From NCBI GenBank assembly GCA_963754875.1, contig CAVWHO010000016.1, positions 192,001 through 256,000 of the forward strand: DNA of 64,000 nt, written 5' to 3'. The notes beneath the pieces are model-generated. The model searched no databases. It saw only the letters and a program-made list of their open reading frames with translations, and was not told the DNA's origin. Positions 14,163-16,464 of this stretch are shown here, in pieces; positions within the stretch are counted from its first letter, which is position 1; the number at the start of each line of letters is the position of its first letter. The DNA comes from Nitrospirota bacterium (GTDB lineage Bacteria; Nitrospirota; UBA9217). Both the position numbers and the translations under genes were made by a program.

Positions 14163-16187
14163 TTAGCGCACTTTCGTCTGATATGTCCGGACCATCTCCT
14201 CGACGCCCCGTTCCAGAGTGTATTCAGGCTCCCAACTGAGCACGCGCCGGGCCTTATCGTTGAGAAACAGAAGATCGGAAGACGCATACTGCACATACGC
14301 ATTCAAGCTGAATTTCACATTAAACAGGCTGCCGACAAAGTCAAGAGCACGCGACGGAACGCCCAGTGCAACAGTCGGCACGGGCAAGAGCCTGAATTTT
14401 TTCCCGACTGATGCGGCAATGGCATTGAAAAAATCATACCAACTGTGACGCAGGCCGTCGGTAAGATTGAATGTTTGGCCTGCGGCATTCTCTTGCAAGC
14501 CGGCGAGGTAGATGGCGCGGGCAAGATCTTTCACATGAATGAGCGGGGCGACGTTATTTCCCTTTCCCACAAAGGGAAAACCAATAGGGCCGAATCGTTC
14601 GATTGCAGCGATTAACCCTCCGAGGTAACGGGAGCCAGAGCCGTAGACCACGCCGGGCCTGATGACGACGTACTCTACCGCTGTCTGTGCTGCAAGAATC
14701 TCTTCACACTGTTTCTTGTAGGCGGTGTAATGCTCTTCGGGGACAAGCTTCGGTTCTGTCTCTTCCGAGGAAGGAAGTGCCGAGGGAATGCCTGCCACGG
14801 TCAACGAGCTGATGAAGAGGAAGCGCTTTAAGCCCGCTTTTTCAATGTTGTTGAGAATCTTTTCTACAAGCTTCACGTTCTTCTTCGCGGCTCGGGGTGA
14901 TGTGTTCCTCAGCTCTCCGATATGGTAGAGCACATCCATGCCCGCCATGGCATCAACGAGTGAGCCGGCATCCTGGAGGTCTCCGCGAAAAAGCGAGACA
15001 TCTTTTCCTGCGAACTGCGCAGGAAGTTCAGCCGTTCGTGCAAAGAGCCGGACGGTGTGGCCGTTTTCCGCGAGCAGACTGACGACCTTGCTCCCGATGA
15101 ACCCTGTACCGCCGGTGACAAGTGCTTTCATACATGCCAGCTTTGAAGCTTCAATAAAGCACTGCGGGTCTTCTGCAAGAAAATCGTCAACGCCGTGCGA
15201 CCGTGCATAGGCGTAAGCAATCGCCCGGCAGCCCCTGCACTGCGCCCACCGGCTGCAGGTGCGGCATTTACCCTTGTATCTGTTCCGGTCCCTGAGCGCA
15301 TCGAGGATCGGCGACGTTGACCAGAGCTCCCGGAGGGAATCCTTCATTACGTTCCCGAGAGAGAGGGGCAGCCTCCTGCAGGGCATTACATCTCCATTCG
15401 GGAGCACGGTCAAACCGGCAACACCCGCCGAGCATCCGCTGATGGCAACGGACCCGGCATCATCGTCCGTTTTCACCCGCATCTGCGACGCGACCGGGTC
15501 TCCGATTACGATTTCGATGCCGTCATGGCCGAGCGCGAATACTGTTTCATAGAGGTCCCTTACCTGCTCCCGGGTCAGCATTTGCGCGAGCAAGGACCTG
15601 CCTTTCCCGGCAGGCACGAGCCGCGAGAACCCGATCCGTTGTACCCGCATGTGCGAGCCAAGAGCGATAATTTTTTTTACCGTCGAAGCATTGATGGCGG
15701 AAAGCGTAGCGTTCAGCGTGATCGGAAGTTTTGCGTCGACAAGGCATTCGACTCCCTCTATTGAGGCACGAAAGCTCCCCTTGCCGCGGATCGCATCATG
15801 GACATCCTCCGGGCCTTCCATACTTACCTGAACTCCATCGACACCGAGATCAGCAAGACTCCGGGCCCGATCCCGGCTAACAAGGGTCCCGTTGGTAAGA
15901 ACATACATTTTGAATCCCTGCTTCTTGATTTCTCCCAGGATATCGAAGAGGTCTTTTTTCAGGAACGGTTCGCCGCCGGTAACATTCATACTTGGCGAAA
16001 AAGCGACCCCGTAAGTGTCCGACCAGTCTTTGATCATGTCCGATACTTCACCGACGACTCGTTTCATTTCAGACAAAGGCAGCTCTCCAGTGCTTCGCTC
16101 GCTCTGGTAACAGTGCCTGCACCGGAGGTTGCAGTTTTCCGTTAAATGCCACTGGATAAAAAACTCAAAGGGTTTATTGGTTGCCAT
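14163..16187 (-). CDS. Radical SAM/SPASM protein, in frame with an NAD-dependent epimerase/dehydratase (extended SDR) domain
   Basis: CNLRCRHC SAM cluster, TGGEP, SPASM C..G...DVMPC...CRTC.....CRGC...DPQC; then MKALVTGGTGFIG and YTAYK (YxxxK). Confidence 0.88.
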   Translation of the reverse strand: MATNKPFEFFIQWHLTENCNLRCRHCYQSERSTGELPLSEMKRVVGEVSDMIKDWSDTYGVAFSPSMNVTGGEPFLKKDLFDILGEIKKQGFKMYVLTNGTLVSRDRARSLADLGVDGVQVSMEGPEDVHDAIRGKGSFRASIEGVECLVDAKLPITLNATLSAINASTVKKIIALGSHMRVQRIGFSRLVPAGKGRSLLAQMLTREQVRDLYETVFALGHDGIEIVIGDPVASQMRVKTDDDAGSVAISGCSAGVAGLTVLPNGDVMPCRRLPLSLGNVMKDSLRELWSTSPILDALRDRNRYKGKCRTCSRWAQCRGCRAIAYAYARSHGVDDFLAEDPQCFIEASKLACMKALVTGGTGFIGSKVVSLLAENGHTVRLFARTAELPAQFAGKDVSLFRGDLQDAGSLVDAMAGMDVLYHIGELRNTSPRAAKKNVKLVEKILNNIEKAGLKRFLFISSLTVAGIPSALPSSEETEPKLVPEEHYTAYKKQCEEILAAQTAVEYVVIRPGVVYGSGSRYLGGLIAAIERFGPIGFPFVGKGNNVAPLIHVKDLARAIYLAGLQENAAGQTFNLTDGLRHSWYDFFNAIAASVGKKFRLLPVPTVALGVPSRALDFVGSLFNVKFSLNAYVQYASSDLLFLNDKARRVLSWEPEYTLERGVEEMVRTYQTKVR

Positions 16188-16324: not shown

Positions 16325-16340
16325 GTTGCTGACCAGCAAC
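16325..16340 (-). promoter_or_regulatory. Putative bacterial SECIS element
   Basis: Minus-strand GTTGCT-GGTC-AGCAAC, a perfect 6-bp stem with a GGTC loop. It begins 10 nt after an in-frame TGA and resembles E. coli fdhF GGTTGCAGGTCTGCACC. Confidence 0.7.
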
Positions 16341-16341
16341 G

Positions 16342-16464
16342 TTAGCTCTTTCAGCCCTTTCATTTGCGACAGAGAGTGCCGGGATTCTGCTTTGCAAGCC
16401 GCTTCATGGCATTCCAGTATGCTGCTTCTTTAGTAAGAGCGTCCCTGCTCATTTGCTTCTTCAT
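16342..16464 (-). CDS. Putative selenocysteine-containing RiPP precursor MKKQMSRDALTKEAAYWNAMKRLAKQNPGTLCRKUKGUKS
   Basis: RBS-like AAGGTGA; in-frame TGA at 16362-16360 and 16353-16351; TAA at 16344-16342; SECIS-like hairpin follows; lies 155 nt upstream of the rSAM/SPASM gene. Confidence 0.7.

Follow-up and report, generated by a model that had tools for sequence, protein, structure and literature searches.

A small gene on the minus strand of the window (the whole 64,000-nucleotide stretch of DNA that was analyzed) very probably encodes, by way of two in-frame UGA codons, a 40-residue peptide with two selenocysteine (Sec) residues, of which annotation retains a truncated form. Directly downstream lies a gene for a radical SAM/SPASM enzyme. 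The pair probably constitutes a two-gene system of a Sec-containing precursor peptide and a dedicated radical SAM/SPASM maturase, in which insertion of Sec is very likely and modification of the peptide by the enzyme is likely. Overall, the findings point to a not yet catalogued family of modified peptides that contain selenium and occur with a radical-SAM partner in many anaerobic bacteria.

Organization of the locus

Re-reading of the minus strand gave the same positions for the ribosome-binding site (RBS), ATG, Cys codon, both TGAs and TAA as an earlier sequence-only reading, and the hairpin that had been placed 10 nt past the second TGA was found there. The radical SAM/SPASM gene reported just downstream of the peptide was also present, with a start at 16187 and matches to PF04055 and PF13186. 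The features are as follows.

16534-16505 (-): possible sigma-70-type promoter, weak, with 9 of 12 consensus matches
16478-16472 (-): RBS-like AAGGTGA, 7 nt before the ATG
16464-16342 (-): putative selenopeptide gene of 40 codons, ATG at 16464, core C32-x-x-U35-x-x-U38-x-x-stop
16371-16369 (-): Cys32 codon (TGT)
16362-16360 (-): first in-frame TGA (U35), at which gene callers stop to give a 34-aa product
16353-16351 (-): second in-frame TGA (U38), TGA in 91 of 91 loci
16344-16342 (-): terminal TAA of the peptide gene
16340-16325 (-): SECIS candidate, hairpin GTTGCT-GGTC-AGCAAC with a 6-bp stem and GGTC loop, just past the stop
16312-16263 (-): long stem-loop and then a pyrimidine-rich tract, between the peptide and enzyme genes
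16187-15144 (-): radical SAM/SPASM enzyme, 347 aa, with CxxxCxxC and seven SPASM Cys
15146-15144 (-): lost stop codon, TCA here and TGA in related strains
15131-14163 (-): NAD-dependent epimerase/dehydratase, a neighbor in close relatives only

The promoter candidate is situated in the 108-nt gap after pgl, where one site was detected versus 0.4 expected in shuffles. Most relatives have a GGAGGTGA-type RBS at the equivalent spot. Residues 1 to ~28 of the peptide form a leader-like helical part in which E13 and W17 are invariant. The stem-loop at 16312-16263 was not called by a strict terminator scan, a similar structure was predicted in nearly all of 33 folded loci, and it is possibly a partial terminator or an mRNA stabilizer. 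Rfam searches returned nothing credible at the locus and only tRNAs, with no cobalamin riboswitch, in 14 other loci that included unlinked copies. Some 3 kb past the epimerase gene, at 11320-5600 (-), three genes resemble CusA/CusB/TolC-type heavy-metal efflux components from their translations alone; no link to the cassette was shown.

The radical SAM/SPASM enzyme

The enzyme has a CxxxCxxC motif at residues 19, 23 and 26 and SPASM cysteines at residues 252, 270, 308, 311, 317, 320 and 343. Across 64 orthologues these ten cysteines, three of which serve the SAM cluster while the others belong to SPASM, showed little or no variation, and the matches to PF04055 and PF13186 were above the gathering score. 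The protein begins directly with the radical SAM domain and has no N-terminal RRE/PqqD domain. A structure model with a pLDDT of 90.5 matched the folds of anSME, SkfB, SuiB, PqqE and CteB at 15 to 23% identity, and the closest folds are those of peptide- or protein-modifying SPASM enzymes. None of the NCBIfam models shown was passed (score/cut-off in bits: AhbD, 176/500; NirJ2, 170/500; ACGX, 165/400), and further scores were also below the cut-off (SbtM, 152.6/350; GeoRSP, 152/400). ESM Atlas matches to the enzyme were generic clusters of radical SAM/SPASM proteins, and none was usable for the peptide. One quick tree gave a monophyly value of 88 for the enzyme family, a second did not resolve its monophyly, and neither fixed the position of the family. 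SbtM grouped in these trees with TIGR04222-linked enzymes and two others, with the enzyme family standing apart at modest support.

In the window, the enzyme ORF runs in frame into the epimerase gene because codon 15146-15144 is TCA, and the resulting 674-aa ORF was observed in this genome only. A fusion of the two proteins as a functional feature was rejected, as the enzyme of relatives stops at about 347 aa and four related-strain runs read TGA at 15146-15144. The lost stop is a private mutation or an assembly error.

Distribution and pairing of the two genes

Enzyme orthologues were collected from 27 loci of named genomes, 25 of them at 43 to 69% identity, together with 61 relatives. Record titles of the 27 loci assigned them to Nitrospirota, Syntrophorhabdaceae, Thermodesulfobacteriota and Deltaproteobacteria, and the peptide gene was found upstream of most of the orthologues that were fetched. 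One carrier of the peptide gene is a named species, Syntrophorhabdus aromaticivorans UI (locus L022).

A set of 401 Nitrospirota genomes was searched for both genes. The peptide profile had 75 matches, of which 3 were removed as chance (G317, G363 and G380), and the enzyme search at an E value of 1e-70 had 75 matches, of which 2 were set apart as a different subfamily (G116 and G133). The peptide was thus present in 72 genomes, the enzyme in 73 and both in 71, although kinship among the genomes inflates such co-occurrence counts, as it does the covariation counts given below. Exceptions were G195, in which the peptide gene is at a contig end and lacks the enzyme; G154, in which the enzyme has an internal TAA and no peptide was matched; and the 100%-complete genome G020, with an enzyme and, unexplained, no peptide match. 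G404 and G405 also had the enzyme and no peptide match. In 401 genomes of a second phylum (that of G401), 27 of 29 matches were genuine, the remaining two (L141 and L142) being removed as chance.

Carriage of the peptide followed the capacity to encode Sec. The selA gene was detected in 66 of the 72 peptide-bearing genomes versus 191 of the 401 overall, and 4 of the 6 exceptions carried selB, selD or tRNA-Sec. Two incomplete genomes showed none of the Sec markers that were checked, namely G033 (86% complete) and G032 (63% complete, with selA and selD tested).

All loci were pooled into 91 homologous loci with distinct cores. A conserved ORF upstream of radical SAM homologues had been anticipated, and the peptide gene was directly upstream of the enzyme gene in 83 of the 91, a proportion that is inflated since many of the loci were located via the enzyme. 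The two genes were on different contigs in 7 of the 71 genomes with both, which favors action of the peptide product in trans. G287 and G397 each have a decayed copy of the peptide gene before the intact enzyme gene, and an intact copy at another site. These results supported a dedicated one-to-one partnership of peptide and enzyme.

Neither a conserved third gene nor a conserved RRE/PqqD, protease or exporter was present among clustered ORFs or 140 flanking ORFs, and the family had no conserved immunity or signal-peptide feature. Recurrence in the flanking ORFs was only local (YceI, 6; PEMT/ICMT-type methyltransferase, 5; nitroreductase, 3; SelD, 2). The PEMT/ICMT-type gene, for a membrane methyltransferase, follows the cassette in L005, L006, L007, L092 and L153 and possibly represents a local tailoring enzyme or plain synteny. 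The selD gene adjoins the peptide gene in G287 (L162:2168-3115) and the enzyme gene plus decayed peptide gene in G397 (L154:1557-2444). In one Desulfobacterota-type clade (L118, L121, L122, L127, L129 and L130), the cassette has a B12-binding radical SAM gene as a neighbor and the SECIS loop is TGGAT. Three copies of the peptide gene were seen in G343 (L095, L096 and L101), of which one accompanies an intact enzyme, another an enzyme remnant, and a third has a decayed leader. One neighbor of an unlinked copy (L097:2-2227, minus strand) has SpvB and TcdB-middle Pfam domains, indicative of a Tc/Rhs-like carrier.

Predicted complex of peptide and enzyme

The complex was modeled with custom alignments and the 34-residue form of the peptide, which ends before the Sec residues. 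A score of 0.83 was obtained, versus 0.02 for the best of three controls; the mark applied to this score is reached by 116 of 157 solved pairs and by 2 of 215 mismatched pairs. Separate runs shared 85% or more of their contacts, with a partner pLDDT of at least 77. In the model, whose closest contacts involve invariant residues of both partners, W17 and E13 of the peptide contact W55, Y59, R286 and W289 of the enzyme. All four of these are invariant except Y59, which 57 of 64 orthologues have. C32 contacts G251/S253 beside the cluster ligand C252. Solved leader-enzyme complexes exist at 16 to 18% identity to the enzyme (SuiB-SuiA and ChlB-ChlA), and a part of the score may reflect likeness to them. 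Overall, the modeling supported binding of the peptide to the enzyme. The sequence-only reading had described a 40-aa RiPP precursor with two Sec residues: the ORF with two TGAs was kept in 91 of 91 loci, and the role as a precursor draws on co-occurrence and the predicted complex.

As modeled, the helix of the peptide that bears E13 and W17 would dock on a family-specific W55-Y59 segment and on R286/W289 of the SPASM domain. Such docking would replace an RRE domain and would place C32 next to auxiliary cluster I.

A selenopeptide could also bind the enzyme as a partner rather than as a substrate. It might be a subunit that ligates a cluster or a metal, donate electrons or selenium, or have a regulatory part, and the enzyme would then act on some other molecule. 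One-to-one co-occurrence and a predicted complex would fit a subunit equally well, a conserved protease or exporter is lacking, and the C-x-x-U-x-x-U core is spaced like a cluster-binding motif with three ligands. The two best NCBIfam scores of the enzyme, to the heme-pathway proteins AhbD and NirJ2, also lean this way, but both are far under the cut-off and the true AhbD is encoded elsewhere in the genome (521 bits). Genes for precursors typically have a leader-plus-core layout, an upstream position and an intervening stem-loop, all of which are seen here. Moreover, the next-nearest enzymes of the phylum also follow a Cys-rich tail, that of the TIGR04222 proteins, and C32 was modeled on the substrate-facing side of auxiliary cluster I. 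We consider a partner role improbable and prefer that of a precursor.

A still weaker case can be made for the ORF as a cis-acting selenium sensor, a leader peptide with no role of its own in which double read-through would control the downstream hairpin or tie translation of the enzyme to the selenium supply. In 5 of the 91 loci (L024/L114, L026, L137, L138 and L139), the ATG of the enzyme overlaps the stop of the peptide and the SECIS is within the first codons of the enzyme, so that translational coupling to Sec read-through is possible in these five; most other loci have the long stem-loop between the genes. A pure sensor would not, however, need an invariant E13, W17 and C32, and an intact peptide gene with its SECIS is kept apart from the enzyme gene in the seven genomes noted above. 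The complex model, in addition, joins invariant residues of both partners. A sensor as the whole explanation is very unlikely; Sec-dependent coupling may well exist, but in a secondary role.

Evidence for probable reading of both UGAs as selenocysteine

Twelve occurrences of the pattern C-x-x-TGA-x-x-TGA-x-x(-x)-stop were detected on both strands of the 4.3-Mb genome. Only the peptide locus had a GG-loop hairpin of at least 6 bp at SECIS distance. The sequence-only reading had looked to homologues for both TGAs and conserved codons beyond them. Both Sec positions were TGA in all 91 loci, with synonymous variation after the first TGA in codons for Lys (AAG/AAA), Gly (GGC/GGT/GGG) and Ser (AGY and TCN). 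The terminal stop, by comparison, was TAA in 46 loci, TGA in 32 and TAG in 13. Family members are 36 to 42 aa in length and share a core consensus of K-U-K-(G/S)-U-K, and M1, E13, W17, C32, U35, K36, U38 and K39 were invariant in 36 aligned peptides.

It had also been claimed that gene callers would miss the peptide, and 111 of 116 database protein relatives ended at C-x-x, indicating that the core is lost by these programs. The predicted alignment of TGA with Cys among homologues was, on the other hand, nearly absent. Cys replaced Sec in none of the 91 genomic loci, for which the filter also admitted TGC or TGT at the Sec positions. The one case was a metagenomic protein (P0079) among the 116 relatives, with Cys at the first Sec position in a protein-level sequence alone.

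Taken together, the conserved ORF, coding constraint through two UGAs, SECIS-like element and confinement to Sec-encoding genomes are, as far as sequence can speak, almost certainly real. The ribosome would read both UGAs as Sec and halt three codons past the second. A third Sec in the 32 loci with TGA as the final codon was considered and rejected; this TGA is only a few nucleotides from the stem and the lengths of read-through are unconserved, as for a stop.

That the first TGA is an ordinary stop, with a 34-residue product ending in C-x-x and the downstream letters acting as an RNA or DNA signal, is extremely improbable: the 34-residue form in databases, the genomes without Cys variants and the UGA termination expected to some degree of any selenoprotein gene agree with it, but database shortening is the default of gene callers, a true stop should drift among TAA, TAG and TGA as codon 41 does, codons 36 to 40 vary synonymously even between the AGY and TCN codons of Ser, the hairpin has the form and spacing of a SECIS and genomes that do not encode Sec are essentially free of the gene.

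The SECIS candidate

The hairpin loop is 25 nt from the U35 TGA and 16 nt from the U38 TGA, and a single hairpin located beyond the stop would serve both codons; with these distances, one SECIS probably does so. A second SECIS for the first UGA, a small hairpin over codons 37 to 40, was rejected since it is broken in the S/K/E variants. The bare hairpin folded at -6.9 kcal/mol, with a z score of -2.4 in a 26-nt window and of -1.0 and +0.5 in wider windows; folding energy by itself proves little for this hairpin. A covarying stem had been expected in homologues, and in 40 sequences 240 of 240 cells were paired and 22 had changed on both sides, a level attained in 0 of 500 shuffles. A script detected the hairpin in 84 of 91 loci, and inspection by eye showed the same type of stem in the other 7, where T-GG or A-GG opens the loop.

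In the published bacterial SECIS model (PMC13188914), the loop is 3 to 9 nt with an early G, the stem is 4 to 16 bp, the spacing is 16 to 37 nt and the energy is -7.5 kcal/mol or lower. The shape of the hairpin and its spacing to each UGA agreed with the model, and the bare stem was slightly short of the energy, at -6.9 versus -7.5 kcal/mol, a comparison in which the segment folded by the model may differ. The spacings of 16 and 25 nt are just outside the 17 to 23 nt of the other selenoprotein-type genes in the genome, for which 14 to 27 nt was scanned.

Selenocysteine machinery of the genome

Machinery for Sec was required by the sequence-only reading, and the source genome (G000; 90% complete) encodes selA (604 bits), selB (374 bits), selD (379 bits) and tRNA-Sec, with selD itself having an in-frame TGA. 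A genome scan for a TGA followed 14 to 27 nt on by a GGT-loop hairpin gave 137 matches, mostly by chance, among which were seven selenoprotein-type genes: FdhA, SelD, MsrA, UXX-star family 1, an ArsM-like methyltransferase that scored below the family cut-offs and two ArsS. Their GGT loops are 17 to 23 nt past the TGA, and in three of the seven the hairpin is past the stop, as in the peptide gene. The selenoprotein-type genes are on contigs C5, C7, C13, C14, C17, C20 and C21 (L178-L183 and L003), and the ArsS-type proteins are radical SAM enzymes. A repeated stretch at C8:295078 (+) and C10:62740 (-) of this genome (L184 and L185) has an in-frame TGA with a GGT-loop hairpin 23 nt on, and the C10:62740 (-) frame had no NCBIfam match. 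This stretch may encode an unknown selenoprotein, or it may be a repeat or the antisense strand of a different gene.

Proposed chemistry

From its seven-Cys motif, the enzyme apparently has an auxiliary cluster I with three Cys ligands and a free site. By analogy with PapB/Tte1186 and SbtM, the S or Se of each Cys or Sec would bind the free iron and a 5'-deoxyadenosyl radical would abstract H. Thio- or selenoether crosslinks may be formed with a likelihood somewhat short of even, for example to the Lys that follows four residues later and hardly varies. Oxidation of the C-beta of the SbtM/anSME type, leading to (seleno)oxazoles or related groups, is a less favored possibility, and some other chemistry is unlikely. 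A near-invariant Lys occurs four residues after C32 and again four residues after U35, positions that would suit crosslinking; the bases after each TGA may instead be fixed by the recoding context. A strict SbtM-type reaction is weakened by the finding of Gly before U38 in only 48 of 91 loci.

With no protease, exporter, immunity or signal-peptide feature conserved, an intracellular product seems most likely, and the peptide might use its selenium for redox chemistry or metal binding instead of leaving the cell as an antibiotic. The most far-reaching form of the proposal is speculative and more doubtful than credible. It describes a RiPP family that depends almost wholly on selenium. One SECIS past the stop would serve two UGAs at a distance of nine bases, and an enzyme with no RRE would build natural selenoether rings in C-x-x-U-x-x-U. 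The product would act inside the cells of anaerobic Nitrospirota and Desulfobacterota-type bacteria as a selenium-based cofactor for redox reactions or metal binding.

Novelty of the family

No family for the peptide was present in NCBIfam (June 2026) or Pfam, and five stray matches to these collections among 36 homologues, each in one or two members, were dismissed as chance. A word-index protein search found one truncated relative. Neither a description of the family nor a natural selenoether RiPP was found in the literature listings and article passages that were searched. In the table of a May 2026 inventory of 119 prokaryotic selenoprotein families, the peptide family is absent and the sole RiPP-type entry is the selenobacteriocin TIGR04081 (PMC13188914). 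The family would be a second Sec-containing RiPP precursor family, unrelated to TIGR04081, and it has been missed because it is short, cut by gene callers and nearly without Cys homologues. It is carried by 72 of 401 Nitrospirota and 27 of 401 second-phylum genomes. The two-gene system would offer a route to new C-Se chemistry. Its peptide gene would be a natural setting in which to ask whether two neighboring UGAs can be recoded by a single bacterial SECIS, and its enzyme could serve to study how a leader is recognized when no RRE is present.

Comparison with known systems

The SbtA/SbtM system shares with this locus a Sec precursor gene beside a radical SAM/SPASM enzyme, occurrence in anaerobes and at least two Sec residues per peptide. 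SbtM oxidizes Gly-Cys/Sec to a thio(seleno)oxazole and has an auxiliary cluster proposed to bind Cys/Sec (PMC9204691). Both SbtM and the present enzyme start the radical SAM domain with Q-W-H-x-T. The sequence-only reading had distinguished the peptide from the Geobacter-type selenobiotic system, and this distinction was borne out: TIGR04081 was not matched by the peptide or 35 homologues at E values of up to 10, and TIGR04082 was not passed by the enzyme. SbtA-type precursors at SbtM loci are ~90 to 110 aa long, their leader is hydrophobic and their S/G-G-U or G-S-U motifs lie far apart, whereas the peptide described here is 36 to 42 aa with a C-terminal C-x-x-U-x-x-U and no G-U-G-type motif. 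The enzyme lacks the ~200 N-terminal residues of SbtM (about 516 aa), scored its 152.6 bits against TIGR04082 over profile positions 199 to 516 alone, is 26 to 32% identical to SbtM and was not its sister in quick trees.

A small precursor and one seven-Cys SPASM enzyme are also features of the ranthipeptide and sactipeptide systems (PapB, Tte1186/CteB, SkfB and AlbA), and CteB and SkfB were among the structural matches of the enzyme. PapB and Tte1186 accept Sec in vitro, bind it at an auxiliary cluster and form Se-C links (PMC10177961). In contrast to the present peptide with its Sec residues, natural substrates of these systems use Cys. The enzyme is far under their cut-offs (PapB, 73.8/340; StsB, 105.6/625) and has no RRE.

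Similarity to the UXX-star families (NF041114, NF041211 and NF041212) lies in the C-terminal U-x-x-stop and a SECIS past the stop. The UXX-star motif was reportedly defined by Haft and Tolstoy in 2025 as a C-terminal U-x-x-stop. The family-1 member of the source genome has the same layout and is glutaredoxin-like, with about 70 aa; the peptide matched none of the three models. The ACGX (TIGR04340), GeoRSP (TIGR04303) and AhbD/NirJ2 (TIGR04545/TIGR04055) enzymes resemble the present one in size (about 330 to 350 aa) and in having no RRE, and they gave its highest NCBIfam scores, 152 to 176 bits versus cut-offs of 400 to 500. Unlike GeoRSP-type loci, the cassette has no PqqD neighbor, and the peptide has no ACGX repeats.

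The next-nearest Nitrospirota enzymes, at 41 to 43% identity, follow TIGR04222 proteins with C-S-G-C tails. In G116 and G133 (L149:2497-4478 and L150:1790-4353), TIGR04222 membrane proteins with Gly/Ser/Cys-rich tails are encoded directly before an unclassified radical SAM/SPASM enzyme, which is a candidate for an anaerobic alternative to MNIO modification. The TIGR04222 proteins are proposed MNIO substrates (PMC12452194), and no MNIO was found among the scanned neighbors of the cassette. Bufferins made by MNIOs are Cys-derived thiooxazole copper chelators, and their likeness to the peptide is one of analogy only. The substrate families differ, the present peptide having neither a signal peptide nor a membrane part. 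The likeness to the TIGR04222 systems hints at metal-binding products from Cys-rich cores.
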